Virus record (IMG/VR): IMGVR_UViG_2778261223_000006
Span: 1-6,761 of that record
From: a virus
Lineage: Duplodnaviria; Heunggongvirae; Uroviricota; Caudoviricetes
Strand: one strand, 5' to 3'
Length of the DNA stretch: 6,761 nt
Part shown: positions 1-6,761 of the stretch, in pieces
Layout: the number at the start of each line of letters is the position of its first letter
Numbering within the stretch: the first letter of the stretch is position 1
Translations under genes and position numbers: made by a program
The notes under the pieces: model-generated
What the model saw: only the letters and a program-made list of their open reading frames with translations
Database searches by the model: none
What the model was told of the DNA's origin: nothing

Positions 1-251
1 TGCTGCTTTAATGCTGCGGTAAACACACACTTCCAGCTTTCTGCATCCAGCCAGCGACCATGCCATTCAACCTGACGAGAGACGTCACCAAGGCAAGCCC
101 AAAGCTTTCGGTTTTGGTCTAAGCTGCGGTTGCGTTCCTGAATGGTTACTACGATTGGTTTGATTGGGTCTGGAAGGATTTGCTGGATAGCTTGAATGGC
201 GTTCTGCTGATGGATGGGGCTTCTTAGTTCAAACGTTAGTTTCCTCACCAT
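1..251 (-). CDS. ninB: NinB (Orf-family recombination mediator), N-terminal ~83 codons; gene continues past the left edge of the window
   Basis: Minus-strand translation from ATG at 251 gives MVRKLTFELRSPIHQQNAIQAIQQILPDPIKPIVVTIQERNRSLDQNRKLWACLGDVSRQVEWHGRWLDAESWKCVFTAALKQQ..., which matches my recollection of lambda NinB almost residue for residue. SD AGGAG lies 5 nt upstream of the ATG. Not in the ORF track because it is truncated by the window edge. Confidence 0.85.
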   Translation of the reverse strand, partial: MVRKLTFELRSPIHQQNAIQAIQQILPDPIKPIVVTIQERNRSLDQNRKLWACLGDVSRQVEWHGRWLDAESWKCVFTAALKQ

Positions 252-393
252 TTACGCTCCTGTAATCGTCAAGTGCAGCTGCAATAGTCCCTATCGGGTC
301 ATGGTCTTGCCCGATAATCTCATTTACGTTTTCATCTTCTTCCACACCGAAAAAGAATCGCAGGGCTAACATGATTTCTTCGTATGCGCTCAT
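229..393 (-). CDS. Hypothetical small acidic protein (54 aa)
   Basis: Translated by hand: MSAYEEIMLALRFFFGVEEDENVNEIIGQDHDPIGTIAAALDDYRSVNGEETNV. Strong SD AAGGAG 5 nt upstream of the ATG, which sits 2 nt after the stop of the upstream 104-aa ORF. Its 3' end overlaps the ninB start by about 23 nt in another frame. No recognisable family. Confidence 0.5.
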   Translation of the reverse strand: MSAYEEIMLALRFFFGVEEDENVNEIIGQDHDPIGTIAAALDDYRSVNGEETNV

Positions 394-395
394 AC

Positions 396-710
396 TCACT
401 CCTTCACTTTGACTCCAGCAGCGCGGATGTTTTCCTCATAAGCATCCATTGCATCACCGAAGCCATTGGAATAATCAACAGAAAACCCTTTGGCTAATGC
501 TTCTCTGCTGTCGATAAACTTTGGCGCGGTTATTTCAATAGCTGCTCGCGATGCATGCCATAAAGCCCACCACTCATTTAAGGAGTGACGAATATCCATG
601 CTTGAAAATGCAAAGTACCTATCACCATTTCTTGCCTCGGTTATCATCTCGAATGGTAATCTCAATTTTTTGGCAACGTATTCCTCAAACTGCTTTCTTG
701 ATTCGTCCAT
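396..710 (-). CDS. Hypothetical phage protein (104 aa), nin-region accessory gene
   Basis: ORF-track ORF with ATG start and SD GAGGGT about 9 nt upstream. Compact operon spacing with flanking genes. No family recognised from memory. Confidence 0.65.
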   Translation of the reverse strand: MDESRKQFEEYVAKKLRLPFEMITEARNGDRYFAFSSMDIRHSLNEWWALWHASRAAIEITAPKFIDSREALAKGFSVDYSNGFGDAMDAYEENIRAAGVKVKE

Positions 711-727
711 CGATACTTACCCTCAGT

Positions 728-934
728 TCAACTCACAAAACGCCACGCCATTTTTGCTACAGCGACAGGCATAACACCGATAATCACCCAGACAAATGCA
801 GCGCCAAACAACGTATACCATGGGTCTTTACCGTCATTCACAAGACGAATGTAGCTATGCAGAACAATAAAAAACGTCAGAAGAATCCATCCAACGCCAA
901 CGCATTTGAGTGCGACGAGCATAAACTCAGCCAC
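728..934 (-). CDS. Small hydrophobic membrane protein (68 aa, about 2 predicted TM helices)
   Basis: ORF-track ORF, GTG start preceded by strong SD GGGGGAGAG about 6 nt upstream; an in-frame ATG 4 codons downstream is an alternative start. Two long hydrophobic stretches (LVALKCVGVGWILLTFFIVL and LFGAAFVWVIIGVMPVAVA). Confidence 0.55.
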   Translation of the reverse strand: MAEFMLVALKCVGVGWILLTFFIVLHSYIRLVNDGKDPWYTLFGAAFVWVIIGVMPVAVAKMAWRFVS

Positions 935-949
935 GATTTACTCTCCCCC

Positions 950-981
950 AAATAAAAAGGCCTGCGATTACCAGCAGGCCT
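950..981 (-). terminator. Rho-independent terminator downstream of the helicase gene (tR2-like position)
   Basis: Perfect 8-bp GC-rich inverted repeat aggcctgc (958-965) / gcaggcct (974-981) with 8-nt loop. On the minus-strand transcript it is followed by UUUUUAUUU (complement of 949-957). Confidence 0.6.
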
Positions 982-1009
982 GTTACAAGCTCAGTGATGT
1001 AGATGGTCA

Positions 1010-2446
1010 TCAGAATCCTCCTTTCTTCTTGGATTGCGGTTCCTCGCGTTCACGGCGGCGCATTTCAGCGGACTGTTGGTCTGTGTCATAAATAGCGCCA
1101 TTTGCCTGAATGCAATACACCGTGCCGGTATTGCCATGACGATTGAGACGAAGGATTAGTTCGGTTTCACCAGGTGGAACACTGTCATCAAAAGCACCTT
1201 CACGATGGATCCCCACCCAATAATCGCAATCCTGTTCAATCTGCCCTGTATCTCGTGAGTCACTTGGTAATGGGCGTTTATTGGTTCTGCTTTCCAGTGC
1301 GCGGTTAAGCTGCGTCAGAAGCACAACAACGCAATCAAGCTCTTTGGCAAGGTTCTTCAGTCCTTTGGTGATCATGCCGTAAGCAAGGTCGTTGCGATCG
1401 GCCTTCTCAGCAGTCATTAGTGTCAGGTAATCGACCAGAATCATGCCAACACATCCTTTTTCTCGCTTGATTCGACGACTTTCGCTGACGATTTGAGCCA
1501 GAGATAATCCCGGCGTGTCGTCGATGTAAAGCAGGTCGATTTCACTCAAGCGATTGGCTGTTTCGATCGCCCTGTTGAAGTCACCATCGTAATCACCCTG
1601 ATAGCCGTCATCAGCGTCATTTGTCGCCGGAAGGTAAAAAATATTCGGGTTAACACCTGACTTCTGTCCTACCAGTTTTTCCAGTATCTGGTCACCGGGC
1701 ATTTCAAGGCTGAACATCAGAGCGGGCTTTTTCTCATGCACTGCGCAGTTGATTGCCATCTGGCTGTATAGCGTCGTTTTCCCCATCTTAGGGCGAGCGC
1801 CAATGACAAACAGAGAGCCTTTCACCAGACCTTTCGGTGACAGCATCCTGTCCAGCGATGGGATCCCTGTGCTCATTCCTCGTTGTTCGCCTGACGGGTC
1901 AAATCGCTTCTCAAGGTCGCTAACCCAGTCTTCCATGACCTCACCAAATGAGCGAAGGCCGCGACGCGATCCGGTTTTTGCATGGTCTGTCAGTTGCGTA
2001 AAAATCGCCTGAATAGCTTCGTACTTCTGCGTCGCAGTCATTCCGTTGCGGGAATAGAGCAATTCCGTCGCTTCAGTCATGCGGTTGATGGCGTAGCGTT
2101 CCATTGCGGTTTCACGAACCTGCATTGCATAGGCAACGATGTTTGCTGCGCTTGGCGTGTTCTTTGCGATCTCAGCGATATAAGCAAAACCGCCAACAGA
2201 CGCCGTTAACGATTTACGCTCCAGTTCATCGAAAAGCGTCAGGCCATCTACTGGCTTTTGCTCCCGGTGCATTCTGGTTATTTCTTCGAAAAGGATTTTG
2301 TGTGGTCGGCTGTAAAATGAATCAGGCTTCAGCATCGCCAGAACTTTCTGGACGCGCTCACTGCTGTCATCATCCAGAAGCAATCCACCAATCACCGCCT
2401 GCTCTGCCTCGATGCTATGGGGCGGCGCATAAAAATTATCGGTCAT
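1010..2446 (-). CDS. dnaB: Replicative DNA helicase, DnaB family
   Basis: Near-colinear with E. coli DnaB as I recall it: N-terminal PHSIEAEQAVIGGLLLD, FAYIAEIAKNTPSAANIVAYA, Walker A GARPKMGKTT, and LTQLNR...RPLPSDSRDTGQIEQDCD. The track ORF starts at a GTG at 2461; I prefer the ATG at 2446 (MTDNFYAPPHS...), which has SD GAGG about 10 nt upstream. Confidence 0.93.
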   Translation of the reverse strand: MTDNFYAPPHSIEAEQAVIGGLLLDDDSSERVQKVLAMLKPDSFYSRPHKILFEEITRMHREQKPVDGLTLFDELERKSLTASVGGFAYIAEIAKNTPSAANIVAYAMQVRETAMERYAINRMTEATELLYSRNGMTATQKYEAIQAIFTQLTDHAKTGSRRGLRSFGEVMEDWVSDLEKRFDPSGEQRGMSTGIPSLDRMLSPKGLVKGSLFVIGARPKMGKTTLYSQMAINCAVHEKKPALMFSLEMPGDQILEKLVGQKSGVNPNIFYLPATNDADDGYQGDYDGDFNRAIETANRLSEIDLLYIDDTPGLSLAQIVSESRRIKREKGCVGMILVDYLTLMTAEKADRNDLAYGMITKGLKNLAKELDCVVVLLTQLNRALESRTNKRPLPSDSRDTGQIEQDCDYWVGIHREGAFDDSVPPGETELILRLNRHGNTGTVYCIQANGAIYDTDQQSAEMRRREREEPQSKKKGGF

Positions 2447-3326
2447 CGTGTTCACCCTCACGAACTTTCAGGTAGGTATTATCGTTAAGCAGGAAATCAA
2501 ATCCCTTTTTGTGCCAGACGGTTCCGCGTTGATGGTTTGGGCGCTCTTCGAACATCCATCGGCAATTTTCGCCAACGTAGCTCAAATAATTTCTCCAGTC
2601 CTGCATCGTGAACCCATGCCCGTCAAGTTGGCGTGTTATTACTCCGGCTTTGCGCCAGAACGTTCGGATCTGGTTTTTACGCTTGTCATTCAGTGCGCGG
2701 ATTCTTGGCGCTTCAGGAAGGATTTCGTGGTAAGCATCGACAACATCCTGACAGCTGACGGAAGGTTTTTTCTTGTCAGACTTTTTGTCTGCTGTGGCAC
2801 TCTCTAATACGTCAGTATTAGAGATATTATTTATATTATTGTTTATGGACAACCGTTGGACAACCGTTGGACAATCTCCGCTGAGAGCCGCGCCATTACT
2901 GGTGTTTGCGTTGGACAACCGTTGGACAACCGTTGGACAATTTTTTGCCTGAAAATCGTCATATTTAACGATTGTAAACAGGCTAAATTTCTTCCCCATC
3001 GAGCAAATATTAAGCATCCCTTTCGACTCAAAAGTCCGTAATAAGCTCCGAACTTTGTTGTCGGGGATGAATGTTTCTCTGACCAGCGACGGGCGTCCAG
3101 TTATCATCTGACCGCGATCAACAGTTATCGGCCCGATATCCGTATTGACGACAGTAGATTCGTGATTAGCCTTGAGGATTAAGTGAAGCCAAAGATGTAC
3201 TGCCTGAGAGTCCTTATAGAGCCTGCTGTCCATAAACTGGCGGTGTATAGAGACATACCCCATACTGGATGCCTCCTGATGTTGTACAGGGTTATGCCTG
3301 TAATCAGCTAACTTAACGACGCCCAT
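2436..3326 (-). CDS. O: Phage replication initiation protein (lambda O-like origin-binding protein) with the origin embedded in its coding sequence
   Basis: Sits between cII and the helicase as in lambdoid replication modules. Contains internal iterons plus an AT-rich tract (2810-2940), encoding a repeated CPTVVQRLS linker peptide. SD AGGAG 6-7 nt upstream of the ATG at 3326. Sequence family not confirmed from memory. Confidence 0.75.
   Translation of the reverse strand: MGVVKLADYRHNPVQHQEASSMGYVSIHRQFMDSRLYKDSQAVHLWLHLILKANHESTVVNTDIGPITVDRGQMITGRPSLVRETFIPDNKVRSLLRTFESKGMLNICSMGKKFSLFTIVKYDDFQAKNCPTVVQRLSNANTSNGAALSGDCPTVVQRLSINNNINNISNTDVLESATADKKSDKKKPSVSCQDVVDAYHEILPEAPRIRALNDKRKNQIRTFWRKAGVITRQLDGHGFTMQDWRNYLSYVGENCRWMFEERPNHQRGTVWHKKGFDFLLNDNTYLKVREGEHDDR
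2810..2845. other. AT-rich DNA-unwinding region of the replication origin, adjacent to the iterons
   Basis: Sequence tacgtcagtattagagatattatttatattattgtttat is strongly AT-rich within an otherwise balanced coding region. It lies immediately downstream (in gene orientation) of the iterons, as in lambda ori. Confidence 0.6.
2846..2874. repeat. Origin iteron cluster 1: tandem 11-bp direct repeats ccgttggacaa (two full units and one partial)
   Basis: Direct read: tggacaa (2846-2852), ccgttggacaa (2853-2863), ccgttggacaa (2864-2874). Lies inside the O-like gene. Confidence 0.8.
2909..2940. repeat. Origin iteron cluster 2: three tandem copies of (c)cgttggacaa
   Basis: Direct read: cgttggacaa (2909-2918), ccgttggacaa (2919-2929), ccgttggacaa (2930-2940). 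Separated from cluster 1 by a 34-bp spacer. Confidence 0.8.
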
Positions 3327-3474
3327 GCTTCACTCCTGCTTTGGCTAGTCTGTAAACACCAACAAGGCGCTCTGCGAACGCCCTGTTATTTGCTGCGGCT
3401 ACCACTAATCCCTCAGGTGAATCAGGGTGTCGAATCTCTTCTTTTTCCTGGTATTTCTTACGACGTTTTGTCAT
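3313..3474 (-). CDS. Hypothetical small basic protein (53 aa) between cII and the O-like gene
   Basis: Translated by hand: MTKRRKKYQEKEEIRHPDSPEGLVVAAANNRAFAERLVGVYRLAKAGVKHGRR. Strong SD AGGAG 5 nt upstream of the ATG at 3474. Stop overlaps the start of the O-like gene by 14 nt. Absent from the ORF track (below its length cutoff). Confidence 0.5.
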   Translation of the reverse strand: MTKRRKKYQEKEEIRHPDSPEGLVVAAANNRAFAERLVGVYRLAKAGVKHGRR

Positions 3475-3508
3475 AATTACTCCTGTGGATTGATCCAGTC
3501 TTTCTACA

Positions 3509-3787
3509 TCAGGCCTCGAAGAATTCGCCGTTCTTCGGGGCTTTTTCTTTTGTCAGCATTCTGGCTACTTTCTTAGCCAGTTCCGCCAACTCCTCGTCTT
3601 CAACACCCCATTCAAGAACAGCAAGAAGCATTCCCATTTTGGGGATGAAGCTGTCTTTCCATCGCGAAATTTGCGATTCATTAATCCCTAACGCGTCGGC
3701 AACCTTTCGCTGACCACGTACAGCAATTCGATTCAGGATGTTGCTTGTAATTGCATTCGCTTTCTTGCGAGTACTTGTAAGTTGCAT
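3509..3787 (-). CDS. cII: Transcriptional activator CII
   Basis: The core SQISRWK...IPK...MLLAVLEWGVEDEE aligns with lambda CII (SQISRWKRDWIPKFSMLLAVLEWGVVDDD). The RBS/start context TTAAGGAAATACTTACATATG is lambda-like. Position directly downstream of cro and nutR. Confidence 0.9.
   Translation of the reverse strand: MQLTSTRKKANAITSNILNRIAVRGQRKVADALGINESQISRWKDSFIPKMGMLLAVLEWGVEDEELAELAKKVARMLTKEKAPKNGEFFEA
3741..3754 (+). promoter_or_regulatory. Candidate CII-binding box (TTGC-N6-TTGC) of a PRE-like promoter reading towards cro/cI, inside the 5' end of cII
   Basis: TTGC ttgtaa TTGC read on the plus strand at 3741-3754, antisense to cII codons about 11-15. Lambda PRE has the same TTGC-N6-TTGC architecture within the cII N-terminal coding region. 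No clear -10 identified. Confidence 0.35.
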
Positions 3788-3844
3788 ATGTAAGTATTTC
3801 CTTAACTAATAAGAAGTTATGCGCATCAACTTATGCGCGTTGTA

Positions 3845-3889
3845 TTCCCGCATTTCGGCGGGAATGAGGACCATGACTGTTAAAGAGCG
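3845..3889 (-). promoter_or_regulatory. nutR site: boxA (complement of 3878-3889, CGCTCTTTAACA) and boxB hairpin (complement of 3845-3863)
   Basis: Minus-strand boxA matches the boxA consensus. The boxB hairpin sequence ucccgccgaaaugcgggaa is identical to the nutL boxB at 5544-5562. Lies between cro and cII as in lambda. Confidence 0.7.
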
Positions 3890-3895
3890 GTGTTA

Positions 3896-4090
3896 CTATT
3901 TGTTTTTCTTGTTGCTTGGGAAAGGACGAACTTCCTCTCCAATCACACTGCCATCAGGCTTTACCGTAACCATAATGTTACGGCCTGCCAGAATGGCCTT
4001 GCTGATAGCGCACTGGATTACACCAAAGTCACTGGCTGCTTTAGCCTGTCCATGGATTTTGGCGTAATCGGCAAGTGTCATTCGAATCAT
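3896..4090 (-). CDS. cro: Cro repressor
   Basis: [64 protein letters not shown] aligns along its length with lambda Cro ([63 protein letters not shown]). The track begins at a GTG at 4096; I prefer the ATG at 4090, which has SD GGAG 7-8 nt upstream. Confidence 0.9.
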
Positions 4091-4119
4091 ATGCACTCTC
4101 CGTTATTAACCATGAACAA

Positions 4120-4148
4120 AGAATACTACAGGTATTCAAAGCAATCAA
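4120..4148 (-). promoter_or_regulatory. PR-like promoter for cro: -35 TTGATT (complement of 4143-4148), 17-bp spacer, -10 TATTCT (complement of 4120-4125)
   Basis: Read on the minus strand. The -10 hexamer is identical to the PL -10. Both hexamers overlap the operator palindromes. Confidence 0.6.
4121..4137. promoter_or_regulatory. Operator OR1-like site, GAATACtacagGTATTC
   Basis: 17-bp site with perfectly symmetric 6-bp arms GAATAC/GTATTC. Overlaps the PR -10. Confidence 0.6.
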
Positions 4149-4162
4149 TACTCAGGGTATTT
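4146..4162. promoter_or_regulatory. Operator OR2-like site, cAATACtcaggGTATTt
   Basis: Symmetric arms AATAC/GTATT. Overlaps the PR -35. Closely related to the OL site at 5432-5448. Confidence 0.55.
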
Positions 4163-4196
4163 TTAGTTTAAGTACCTTAGCTATTAGAATTAAGCT
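4162..4196 (+). promoter_or_regulatory. PRM-like promoter for a leaderless cI transcript: -10 TAGAAT at 4185-4190, poor -35 TTTAGT at 4162-4167
   Basis: TAGAAT ends 6 nt before the cI ATG (4197) and there is no SD upstream of cI, as for lambda PRM/cI. A possible degenerate third operator lies at about 4170-4187. Confidence 0.5.
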
Positions 4197-4913
4197 ATGG
4201 AAAATAAAAAATCACTGACGACAGAACAGCTCGAAGACGCTAAGCGGCTTAAGGCTTTGTATGAGTCAAAAAAGAAAGAATTGGGAATAACCCAATACTC
4301 AATCGCTGATGAACTGGGTATCACCCAAGGAGCGGTAGGGCATTATCTTAATGGCAGAAACGCGCTAAACGTTGAGGTCGCATCTGGTTTTGCACGTTTG
4401 TTGCAAGTCTCAATTGCTGATTTTAGCCAGTCAATTGCTGCCAAGGTTGCAGAACAGGCAGAAAGCCTTAAGAGCGATGCCAACGTAAGGTATGCAGGGG
4501 AATACAGAGCAGGAAAGAGGTATCCGGTGTTAAGCAGTATCCAGGCTGGCTCGTGGTGTGAAGCATGCGAACCATACACCATTAAAGACATAGATGTTTG
4601 GCTTGAGTCTGACGCGCATATTCAAGGTAATGCGTTCTGGCTTAAAGTGGAAGGTGATTCAATGACGGCACCGGTTGGGTTAAGCATTCCAGAGGGAACA
4701 TTCGTTCTTTTCGATACCGGAAGGGAGGCGATCAACGGCAGCTTGGTCATAGCAAAACTTTCTGACTCTAACGAAGCAACATTCAAGAAGCTGATAATCG
4801 ACGGCGGAAATAAATACCTCAAGGGACTTAACCCTGCATGGCCTCTCGTGCCAATCAATGGAAACTGCAAGATTATAGGCGTTGCAATTGAGACAAAACT
4901 AAGGCTGGTTTGA
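4197..4913 (+). CDS. cI: CI repressor (HTH DNA-binding domain plus S24 LexA-like autopeptidase domain)
   Basis: N-terminus LTTEQLEDAKRLKALYESKKKELG matches lambda CI ([24 protein letters not shown]), with a divergent recognition helix. Ala-Gly cleavage site (IQAGSW), catalytic Ser (VEGDSMTAP) and Lys (ATFKKLI) motifs are present. Confidence 0.95.
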   Translation: MENKKSLTTEQLEDAKRLKALYESKKKELGITQYSIADELGITQGAVGHYLNGRNALNVEVASGFARLLQVSIADFSQSIAAKVAEQAESLKSDANVRYAGEYRAGKRYPVLSSIQAGSWCEACEPYTIKDIDVWLESDAHIQGNAFWLKVEGDSMTAPVGLSIPEGTFVLFDTGREAINGSLVIAKLSDSNEATFKKLIIDGGNKYLKGLNPAWPLVPINGNCKIIGVAIETKLRLV

Positions 4914-4932
4914 TCACGCAAGGGGGACGCTT

Positions 4933-5301
4933 ATGGTTGGAACCGCTATAGCAAGCTTTTTTGGGATGTTGGCAATCTCAACAATTTACGGCTTAGCGCA
5001 TGCTTTTATTGCGAAATCTCTATCAGAAAAAATAAGCCAGGCTTGGGCGCATAGATCAGCTCGTTTCATGATTCTAGTGGTCATAGCAATACAAGGGATA
5101 TCTGCATTTATCCTCTATGGATCAAGCTTATACCTGTTGTATCAAGGCGCGACATTTACGCCTTACACCAGTGATTACGGAACTCTATACGATGGTAGTG
5201 AAGACATCTCTATGGCTTGGATCGTCTTTGGTTTATCTGTGGCCGTGTCTGTTGTAGCAGACATCATTAAGGTAATTCTCGTCTTAACCTTCGCTGACTA
5301 A
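4933..5301 (+). CDS. Integral membrane protein (122 aa, about 3 TM helices) co-transcribed with cI; candidate lysogen-expressed exclusion/defence protein in the rex position
   Basis: ATG lies 19 nt after the cI stop, with SD AAGGGGGA between. Three long hydrophobic segments (residues about 5-27, 45-70, 95-120). Occupies the slot between cI and OL/PL that holds rexA/rexB in lambda. No family recognised. Confidence 0.75.
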   Translation: MVGTAIASFFGMLAISTIYGLAHAFIAKSLSEKISQAWAHRSARFMILVVIAIQGISAFILYGSSLYLLYQGATFTPYTSDYGTLYDGSEDISMAWIVFGLSVAVSVVADIIKVILVLTFAD

Positions 5302-5431
5302 CCCATAATCCCGGCAGCAATAGCTATCGGGATCCACTTCACATATCCCGCATAAAAAGCACTGAACAAGCAGATACCGAAAAAATAAATATCCTTTGTA
5401 TTCATCTGTTTATCATTATTTCATCAAAAAT

Positions 5432-5473
5432 AAATACCCTGGGTATTTACACAATAAAATACCTACAGTATTC
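5432..5473. promoter_or_regulatory. OL operators: AAATACCCtGGGTATTT (5432-5448, perfect 8-bp arms) and AAATACCtacagTATTC (5457-5473)
   Basis: Palindromes read directly. Same ATAC...GTAT half-site family as the OR sites. They overlap the PL hexamers. Confidence 0.65.
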
Positions 5474-5474
5474 T
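5446..5474 (+). promoter_or_regulatory. PL-like promoter: -35 TTTACA (5446-5451), 17-bp spacer, -10 TATTCT (5469-5474)
   Basis: Hexamers with canonical spacing, overlapped by the OL palindromes. About 190 nt upstream of the N-like gene. Confidence 0.6.
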
Positions 5475-5520
5475 TTAGCCATCAGCAGGACGCTGGTAGC
5501 CAAACGGAACAGATTGGCAG

Positions 5521-5562
5521 GCTCTTTAACATTGATGGGATTGTCCCGCCGAAATGCGGGAA
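5521..5562 (+). promoter_or_regulatory. nutL site: boxA GCTCTTTAACA (5521-5531) and boxB hairpin tcccgccgaaatgcgggaa (5544-5562)
   Basis: boxA matches the boxA consensus. boxB is identical to the inferred nutR boxB. boxA-boxB spacing is 12 nt here and 14 nt at nutR. Confidence 0.7.
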
Positions 5563-5668
5563 CCAAAGAGTAGTTGGCTTTGGGGTGATGTGAAGTGCAG
5601 CTGCACGACGGCAACCGGAAGATAAGCACCCGGCGCGTCACCGCCAAAGTCAATCATCGGAGGTCAAC

Positions 5669-5941
5669 ATGACAGTAGTCATTACATATCTGGCTGACGA
5701 TAACGCCAGAAATCGCCGCAGAGCACGCAGACAGGCTCAACGTGAACAGGCAATGCAAGAACAGCGACTGGCGCGAAAAATTGCGCTAAAGCTCTCTGGT
5801 TGCGTCAGAGCAGATAAAGCAGCATCACTCGGAAGCCTTCGCTGCAAGAAGGCAGATGAATGCAGTGGAAGTATTTGCCTGCCAAACGTAGCTATTTACG
5901 CGGCAGGCTACCGGAAATCAAAACAACTGACGGCGAGATGA
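5669..5941 (+). CDS. N: N-like transcription antitermination protein (90 aa) with N-terminal arginine-rich motif
   Basis: First gene downstream of PL/nutL. Arginine-rich motif DNARNRRRARRQAQREQ near the N-terminus, as in lambdoid N proteins that bind boxB. SD GGAGG 4 nt upstream of the ATG. Confidence 0.65.
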   Translation: MTVVITYLADDNARNRRRARRQAQREQAMQEQRLARKIALKLSGCVRADKAASLGSLRCKKADECSGSICLPNVAIYAAGYRKSKQLTAR

Positions 5942-5957
5942 TAAATTAATTTGCTAA

Positions 5958-6539
5958 TTACTTGTTTTTGCCGTGCTTATCCTGAGCGATAAGTTCATCC
6001 ATAAGACTGTCTTTCTTCCCAGCAAACCTAATGTAGCACTCATTTCTATAGCGTTCTGGGATAACAAAACGGTCGATTTCAGGATATCCAGTAGCAGAAG
6101 GTATCCGAATAAGAAGCCCTTTTTCGAGCAATGAGATTGCTTCAGGGCTTCCCTTTTCCGTTTGTAGCTGGTTATTAGCGACTACAGCGAGTGCCAAATA
6201 CGCTCTTTCTCCAAGAGTTAACGAATCAAACAAATCTTGCACGTATTTCTCTTCTTTAGATTTGCGCTTCTGAGCAGCGAATACCTCAATTCTTTCAGTC
6301 ACAGCGTGATAAGCGGAATTAACAACGCCGTTAAGCACATAGCTAACGCAAAACAACAGGATGTAATACATCCAGTAATGAGGAAGGATTTCTGGATTAT
6401 GCAGGTTTATCCATTCTTTTACGCTTACCGGCATAACAATAATCAATATGATCAGGATGATTAGCATATGAATCAACTGTTTAAGTGTCATTCCTTGCAG
6501 GAAAAAATGCATTAGTTCCTGCCACCATGAGTTGTTCAT
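5958..6539 (-). CDS. sieB: Superinfection exclusion protein B-like membrane protein (193 aa)
   Basis: Convergent with N, as sieB is in lambda/P22. N-terminal hydrophobic TM segments (LIHMLIILIILIIVMPV, YWMYYILLFCVSYVL). The sequence matches my recollection of lambdoid SieB but this is unverified. Confidence 0.65.
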   Translation of the reverse strand: MNNSWWQELMHFFLQGMTLKQLIHMLIILIILIIVMPVSVKEWINLHNPEILPHYWMYYILLFCVSYVLNGVVNSAYHAVTERIEVFAAQKRKSKEEKYVQDLFDSLTLGERAYLALAVVANNQLQTEKGSPEAISLLEKGLLIRIPSATGYPEIDRFVIPERYRNECYIRFAGKKDSLMDELIAQDKHGKNK

Positions 6540-6761
6540 CGGCGTTTCTCTTTTGCTCTCTGTAGGGGTGAATAGAGTTTATCCGATTTCTCGCTTGAGC
6601 TGGCCCCCTGAAATACCAGACAGTAGATGTATCTTAAAATAAGAGATAGGCTTGGATATATGTCTAACACTAGTTCTAATTTTGGTAAGCGTAAACTGAC
6701 CGCCGTATGTAGCCATCAGACGAGAATTGGTAACTTAGACGCCCATCTGATATAGACGGAC

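Follow-up and report, generated by a model that had tools for sequence, protein, structure and literature searches.

What do the small genes do that lambdoid phages can carry between the tR2-like terminator and ninB? The question is raised by a 6,761-nucleotide (nt) stretch of DNA from a virus of the class Caudoviricetes (IMG/VR record IMGVR_UViG_2778261223_000006, positions 1 to 6,761), referred to here as the window. An earlier reading of the letters alone (the sequence-only reading) had placed three tightly packed small open reading frames (ORFs) between a tR2-like terminator and ninB and had proposed this slot as a plausible location for exclusion or anti-defence genes. The three ORFs, designated orf68, orf104 and orf54 for products of 68, 104 and 54 amino acids (aa), proved to be genuine. 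The anatomy of the region, comprising its genes, the slot and the joints at its borders, is well supported, and both whole genes and parts of genes are exchanged as cassettes at short conserved joints, namely the ninA/tR2 segment, the 5' end of ninB and three anchors within orf104. The functional class, by contrast, is a guess from context. The slot proteins may be lytic-phase accessory binders, and counter-defence or host takeover is tentatively favored as their role. The coordinates of all features are collected in Table 1.

Gene Organization of the Slot

The window covers the immunity and replication genes and the junction with the nin region of a lambdoid phage or prophage, with the rightward early operon on the minus strand. 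Translational coupling is unbroken from the helicase gene to ninB, the stop-to-start distances along the series helicase, ninA, orf68, orf104, orf54 and ninB being -1, -8, 17, 2 and -23 nt. The coordinates, the 17- and 2-nt gaps and the overlap with the ninB start (ATG at 251) were as the sequence-only reading had given them. The start codon of orf68 is GTG, with GGAG 8 nt upstream, and the ATG of orf54 is preceded at 5 nt by AAGGAG, which lies within the last codons of orf104. A mechanical ORF list had produced a 56-aa version of orf54 with a GTG start; the homologues and phrog_1603 begin at the ATG. In the window, the slot block formed by orf68, orf104 and orf54 is 690 nt long.

A fourth ORF, overlooked by the sequence-only reading, forms the left joint of the slot. 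It was identified as ninA because it is an 84-nt ORF at the end of the replication gene that runs through the tR2 hairpin and is near-identical in sequence; the ORF equal to window positions 927-1010 is annotated ninA in Sf6 and SPN9CC. Its ATG overlaps the helicase stop codon (TGATG), its reading frame crosses the terminator hairpin, where it specifies GLLVIAGL, and its end overlaps the start of orf68 by 8 nt. Alignment revealed that the ninA/tR2 segment is almost base-for-base identical in the window, lambda, Sf6 and H-19B, and in the Sf6 record it is annotated both as tR2 and as "boundary sequence bsq6". The ninA gene was found in nearly all of 81 related loci, irrespective of the type of replication gene. 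The joint reaches into the first codons of the following gene, as GTGGCTGA is common to orf68 and Sf6 gp46. The terminator itself, also postulated earlier, was recovered as a hairpin with a T-run. Inside orf68, at 873-898 on the minus strand, there is a second terminator-like hairpin and T-run with 9 pairs, only 3 of them G-C; it was taken as a chance occurrence, two such sites having been found against 1.4 expected.

In lambda, N-mediated antitermination carries transcription from pR past tR2. On this model, ninA, orf68, orf104 and orf54 would constitute a promoterless, coupled string of small non-essential accessory genes in an optional slot of the delayed-early rightward operon, with transcription arriving from pR once N allows it to pass tR2 and not before. 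Dependence on N implies that the slot genes would function in the lytic cycle or upon induction, not in the lysogen. A simple sigma-70 consensus scan, which weak or non-canonical promoters might escape, detected no promoter-like site in positions 1-1300, against 1.9 expected.

These observations bear on the proposal of superinfection exclusion or prophage-encoded defence, according to which the lysogen would produce orf68, perhaps with others, to block incoming phages. Phage exclusion factors are often small membrane proteins, and such proteins are abundant in the slot (NinA, orf68 and the families F3, F6 and F5); weak promoters, moreover, could have gone undetected. The lytic-phase expression proposed above nevertheless argues against classical prophage-expressed exclusion. 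A strong terminator precedes the slot genes, whose translation is coupled to that of early lytic genes within the N-antiterminated operon, PADLOC returned no defence-model match for orf68, orf104 or orf54, and the window already carries a SieB homologue (5958-6539) in the immunity region together with a membrane protein downstream of cI, where prophage expression would be expected. Exclusion therefore fits poorly and is considered quite improbable here.

The sequence-only reading had also assumed that the corresponding slot of lambda holds ren, and this did not stand. The ren gene of lambda (40280-40570), which overlaps P, stops immediately upstream of the ninA/tR2 segment, and in lambda the latter runs straight into the start codon of ninB, so that the lambda slot is empty. 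H-19B carries ren in addition to the block of ninA/tR2, orf68 and orf104, and no similarity of orf68, orf104 or orf54 to lambda Ren was found by BLASTP (best E about 50). Like the slot genes, ren is small and non-essential and belongs to this operon, where it lies close to the point at which the replication module ends, but it differs from them in its position outside the slot, in its sequence and in co-occurring with orf68 and orf104 in H-19B.

Variation of Slot Content among Related Loci

Slot content was compared in two samples. The first was unbiased, its loci having been caught by an exact 44-mer of tR2/ninA that is blind to what follows; 110 of these loci also had ninB. The slot was empty in 63 of the 110 (57%) and filled in 47, where 200-1240 nt of small genes were arranged in 21 architectures. 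Members of the orf104 and orf68 families were present in 27 and 24 of the 47 filled slots, respectively, and the orf54 family in none. The second sample consisted of 80 loci chosen for an orf104 homologue (81 entries when the window is included), and the 80 loci showed 25 architectures that draw on 19 small-gene clusters, of which 10 recurred in at least three loci. Other two-transmembrane (two-TM) proteins, a DUF7301 protein and sub-threshold FlbD-like and Lar-like proteins are among the slot gene families. Hypervariability of the slot, which the sequence-only reading had left to synteny comparison, was thereby borne out.

The exact trio orf68-orf104-orf54 is rare, being found in 5 of the 81 orf104-selected entries (four loci and the window) and in none of the 47 filled slots of the unbiased sample. 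At least 80% of window positions 1-1100 was present in 7 of 5426 complete Escherichia coli genomes, and parts of it in 2097. Homologues of the slot proteins have already been deposited as hypothetical proteins of Sf6 (gp48), HK022, mEp235, mEp213, Stx phages and ST64T.

The flanking genes vary independently of the cassettes, which adjoin unrelated replication genes (the helicase being 100% or 32% identical, or absent) and different ninB alleles. This is relevant to the idea that the slot encodes accessory factors of replication or recombination that cooperate with the DnaB-type helicase or NinB/Orf, SSB, RecFOR and helicase loading being examples of what they might modulate. The position between the helicase gene and ninB would suit such a role, as would the observations that at most one small gene usually separates members of the orf104 family from ninB downstream, that in every locus long enough to show it ninB comes next after orf54 and mostly overlaps it, and that a Yersinia phage uses the same slot between P and NinB. 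The slot is, however, empty in lambda and in the 63 loci with the same ninA and ninB, the same cassettes stand beside unrelated partners on both sides, and orf104 homologues occur outside this neighborhood altogether (in swi2 and in a Pseudomonas phage). Physical overlap is enough to explain the linkage of orf54 to ninB. A replication or recombination role is accordingly rated as unlikely.

Protein Families and Membrane Character

In searches against PHROG, orf68 matched phrog_1165 (E=1.6e-39, 1-68 of 68), orf104 matched phrog_343 (E=9.5e-26, profile positions 36-125 of 135) and orf54 matched phrog_1603 (E=1.5e-32, 1-53 of 54); all three are families of unknown function, and the profile searches returned no characterized housekeeping homologue. 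The protein database held 61 clusters of homologues for orf68, 290 for orf104 and 24 for orf54, and homologues of each occur in phages and prophages of enterobacteria. In agreement with the sequence-only reading, which had recognized none of the products, no Pfam, NCBIfam, PADLOC or PDB match that would indicate a function was obtained for any of them.

The descriptions of orf68 as a two-TM protein and of orf54 as acidic were likewise upheld. Two hydrophobic segments span approximately residues 4-32 and 39-64 of orf68, and orf54 contains 13 acidic and 2 basic residues (pI 4.05). Two alleles of orf68 were distinguished (∼97% and ∼55% identity), with a conserved C-terminal IGVMPVAVAKMAWRF. Its sub-threshold matches to T4SS_pilin and to an antiporter subunit were set aside as reflecting hydrophobic composition only.

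The membrane character of NinA and orf68 raises the possibility that slot products modulate host physiology or the timing of lysis in a manner unrelated to immunity, for example as a membrane-active pair that alters membrane potential or division. Lambda Kil-type early functions provide a model for early modulation of physiology. Early lytic expression, as proposed above, would be compatible with such a role, and NinA and orf68 are both hydrophobic, overlap and are at times annotated as a single fusion of 93-94 aa (P0132, P0138). No homology to any protein of this kind was found, however, and modulation of physiology explains the mosaicism of orf104 and the presence/absence pattern no better than counter-defence does. 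It is regarded as distinctly unlikely.

Anchors and Cassettes within orf104

A profile search extended the orf104 family to 998 clusters at 50% identity, from phages of Enterobacteria and Pseudomonas, and nearly all of the best 150 of these clusters are stand-alone proteins of 80-135 aa. A precomputed PF26207 label is attached to all but one of 120 listed orf104 homologues. The Pfam-A search gave no match of orf104 or its cousin P0048 to PF26207, the local copy of Pfam-A presumably predating the model. One 61%-identical cousin is named "phiTE_015 family protein" in RefSeq; NCBIfam returned no match for orf104 or for the cousins P0048, P0098, P0016 and P0033, and orf104 is not assigned to the phiTE_015 family. 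The AlphaFold2 (AF2) model of orf104 comprises five helices, with an N-terminal three-helix unit predicted with good confidence. A relationship to holo-ACP synthase was considered and dismissed, the PDB sequence matches having E values of only ∼0.4, which were taken as chance.

Comparison of homologues revealed that orf104 is composed of three constant anchors that enclose two variable cassettes, V1 and V2. For V1, at least 15 unrelated variants exist among homologues, and five types were distinguished in 85 genes from viral-contig loci, with ratios of nonsynonymous to synonymous polymorphism (pN/pS) of 0.15-0.20. For V2, the homologues contain at least 10 unrelated variants, with six types in the viral-contig loci and pN/pS of 0.27-0.47. 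The two cassettes assort independently of each other.

The anchors are conserved at the level of DNA. Across genes with differing cassettes, nucleotide identity is 82-83% in the middle anchor and 88-93% in the C-terminal anchor, where I95, G99 and K103 are invariant, and the constant segments (MDESRKQFEE, W.AWQASRAAIEI and IRAAGVKVKE) mostly use the same codons in genes with unrelated cassettes. Alignments by megablast to H-19B, mEp213 and an Stx1a phage are interrupted precisely at 534, in the middle anchor. The constant segments are also kept as protein in distant relatives, and this combination of DNA and protein conservation implies that the anchors would serve both as scaffold and as recombination joint. 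No earlier description of such a three-anchor, two-cassette structure was found; it refines the mosaicism already known for these phages.

Three further features of the family were observed. Residue 52 of the window's orf104 (555-557, minus strand) is His within the nearly universal W.AWQASR (here WALWHASR), where the closest homologues have Gln. Some slots (L046-L050 and L133, with the architectures F2-F1-F12-F6-F1 and F2-F1-F3-F6-F1) contain two orf104-family genes with different cassettes, which implies that the unit can be duplicated or stacked. In swi2-like 47-kb phages (P0098-P0120, P0236, P0278, P0332; L257), gene calls give the orf104 homologue one or two additional N-terminal modules, consisting of MRWAIKHKSGRTLFVTSDEFIANNRRKMGWIVEEVK and/or a CxxCxGxG zinc-finger module, each of which ends in EE(V/L)K just before the Met of the core; these may be either true fusions or upstream mini-ORFs included by read-through.

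Taken further, the cassette structure would be compatible with the orf104 family being a modular adaptor for counter-defence or host targeting, in which a helical scaffold carries two specificity cassettes swapped by homologous recombination at DNA-conserved anchors and orf54 is an optional partner. This elaboration is unlikely as a whole; no sub-gene cassette system in phage anti-defence proteins was found described in the literature searched.

orf54 and the Right Joint in ninB

The AF2 model of orf54 is a three-helix bundle with a low-confidence EETNV tail, and a PDB sequence search returned no match for this protein. The helix boundaries resemble those of the N-terminal domain of orf104, and descent of orf54 from a truncated paralogue of that domain was considered and rejected (hhalign probability of 6%). 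Where orf54 is present, it is usually the immediate successor of a gene of the orf104 family, whatever the cassette type of that gene and even when identity is as low as 27-54%. In locus L187, the C-terminal half of a 101-aa ORF ("new101", …YSVIFDALKAYYEVEEDDSVWEIFNQADDQIEEIANALKVLGE) resembles a divergent relative of orf54, and the orf54 family may be broader than the 24 clusters found.

Three unrelated proteins, namely orf54 and those of an FlbD-like 84-aa family and a 78-aa family, share the EETNV tail, since it is what the beginning of ninB encodes in an alternative reading frame. Examples include window positions 229-251 (minus strand) and loci L039, L041, L110, L152, L177 and others, all with a lambda-type ninB. 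A second tail, ASQRSNQK*, is common to other slot proteins and probably stems from another ninB allele. No earlier description was found of a right joint within ninB that yields the same tail on unrelated proteins.

Joints of this kind are also what would be expected if the ORFs were near-neutral hitchhikers, persisting through recombination-prone joints and low cost with no significant function. The conservation of the joints as DNA, the frequent loss of slot genes (57% of slots being empty) and the existence of frameshifted or truncated copies (e.g. P0047, P0082 and P0102) would all agree with this. Purifying selection on orf68, orf104 and orf54 speaks against it: the ratio of nonsynonymous to synonymous substitution rates (dN/dS) was 0.39 for orf68 and 0.15 for orf54. 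Invariant residues in a family as diverse as that of orf104, and an order of orf104 and orf54 that is retained at low identity, are also at odds with neutrality. Hitchhiking is therefore judged very unlikely.

A Possible Role in Counter-defence or Host Takeover

The reading tentatively favored here is that the slot products are small binders without a catalytic domain that modulate host or competitor factors through protein-protein interactions. In this scheme, orf68 would be a two-TM hairpin of the inner membrane, orf104 a helical scaffold in which two swappable segments set target specificity, and orf54 a very acidic three-helix bundle. Presence/absence polymorphism, combinatorial content, the lack of enzymatic domains and exchange below the level of the gene are interpreted as typical of genes that meet variable host or competitor factors.

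A weak push toward counter-defence in particular comes from Lar-like genes in the slot and near an orf104 homologue. In some loci, the position of orf54 is occupied by a protein of family F13 that matches the Lar model PF14354 below threshold (E=0.0022, 18.7 bits against a cutoff of 28.6), a second slot protein has a Lar-like CPFCGG motif as read by eye, and in the unrelated phage swi2 a Lar-like gene is annotated at a distance of two genes from the orf104 homologue.

Several points weigh against a counter-defence or host-takeover role. The Lar-like association is weak, as it consists of a sub-threshold Pfam match and concerns neighbors rather than these proteins. Shuffling of cassettes could arise from the opportunity for recombination at conserved joints instead of from selection for new specificities, and the pN/pS values within cassettes are below 1 and give no signal of positive selection. 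The C-terminal half of the orf104 model has moderate confidence only (predicted local distance difference test scores, pLDDT, of 63-76), and fold searches of the proteins were uninformative. Given the limits of the promoter scan, expression of the slot genes in the lysogen could also occur.

Relation to Known Systems

The nin region is a non-essential, tightly packed region with ATGA overlaps (PMC8022706). Its small genes, such as ninA-ninH of lambda and P22 and gp45-gp49 of Sf6, resemble the slot genes in belonging to the same operon, in the ninA/tR2 joint and in tight packing with overlapping stops and starts; Sf6 gp45 is ninA and gp48 is a 68%-identical homologue of orf104. They differ in that the records of lambda and P22 that were examined have no equivalents between ninA and ninB and in the rarity of the exact trio. 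Both lambdoid mosaicism and the boundary sequence at ninA/tR2 have been documented before, and the slot genes are new members of the known nin accessory class.

The concept of boundary or linker sequences in lambdoid mosaicism reportedly goes back to the HK620 and Sf6 genome papers. The left joint described here is the annotated bsq6, and as in that concept short conserved DNA flanks exchangeable modules. The present case differs in having three joints inside one small gene, orf104, that delimit cassettes of ∼35 codons, and in a right joint within the first codons of ninB.

With Lar, Ral and other small early anti-defence proteins, the slot genes share the form of small promoterless early genes of temperate phages, and orf54 is small and very acidic, like many protein inhibitors. 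In contrast to Lar, orf54 and orf104 lack the zinc-ribbon motif (CPFCG...C..C), and Pfam searches at E values up to 1 returned no match to PF14354 for orf54, orf104 or orf68. Literature searches yielded no functional study of the three families, and these are not mentioned in the accessory-gene screen of Silas et al. or in an anti-defence machine-learning supplement.

Other Features of the Window

Table 1. Positions of the slot genes, their joints and cassettes, and neighboring genes in the window
Feature	Position	Strand	Remarks
ninB, 5' part	1-251	-	Runs off the window; right joint of slot; PF05772 E=4e-32, phrog_72
orf54	229-393	-	54-aa acidic protein, predicted three-helix; phrog_1603
orf104	396-710	-	104-aa soluble protein, predicted all-helical; phrog_343
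orf104 C-terminal constant anchor	396-428	-	IRAAGVKVKE and stop; carries Shine-Dalgarno sequence of next gene
orf104 variable cassette V2	429-530	-	Codons 61-94
orf104 middle constant anchor	531-569	-	WALWHASRAAIEI; W51, R55 and I58 invariant
orf104 variable cassette V1	570-680	-	Codons 11-47
orf104 N-terminal constant anchor	681-710	-	MDESRKQFEE; 95% nt identity between genes with unalignable V1
orf68	728-934	-	68-aa two-TM protein of inner-membrane type; phrog_1165
NinA-like ORF	927-1010	-	27-aa, hydrophobic (MTIYITELVTGLLVIAGLFIWGRVNRG); left joint of slot
tR2-like intrinsic terminator	948-981	-	Hairpin 981-958, 8 pairs (6 G-C), then T-run TTTTATTT
DnaB-type replicative helicase	1010-2461	-	Gene upstream of slot; PF03796, PF00772
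O-like initiator	2436-3326	-	Internal iterons
CII	3509-3787	-	Pfam
Cro	3896-4096	-	Pfam
cI	4197-4913	+	Pfam
N-type antiterminator	5669-5941	+	Pfam
SieB homologue	5958-6539	-	193-aa membrane protein; PF14163, E=3.8e-24

The SieB gene is opposite in strand to, and convergent with, the N-like gene, and it is a bona fide candidate for superinfection exclusion. A 122-aa multi-TM protein is encoded at 4933-5301 on the plus strand, 20 nt downstream of cI and on the same strand, in the position that rexAB has in lambda. No family could be assigned to it, the sole match being a sub-threshold one to Cation_ATPase_C, and the gene is a candidate for expression in the prophage.

Within the O-like gene, positions 2846-2944 contain two clusters of three tandem 11-nt repeats (TGGACAACCGT) that lie 66 nt apart and are presumably origin iterons; translation of these repeats gives the peptide repeat PTVVQRLS of the O-like protein. 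Between cII and the O-like gene, a basic 53-aa ORF (MTKRRKKYQEKEE...) at 3313-3474 on the minus strand overlaps the O-like start by 14 nt and gave no Pfam match. An Rfam scan of the window matched no RNA family.

Implications

The region is an ordinary kind of phage accessory region that would not surprise a specialist, and what it currently provides is a detailed picture of lambdoid mosaicism, in which joints fall within genes, and not a new mechanism. Lambda vir, in which the slot is empty, offers a clean test bed for slot genes. Should the slot serve counter-defence or host takeover, it would be easy to find at a predictable site in hundreds of lambdoid prophages from E. coli, Salmonella and Shigella and could be mined for new small inhibitors, and the orf104 family, with ∼1000 clusters at 50% identity, would provide a compact model for the recombinational exchange of binding specificity. 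If orf104 were indeed a modular adaptor, it would represent a natural plug-and-play means of retargeting a small inhibitor.

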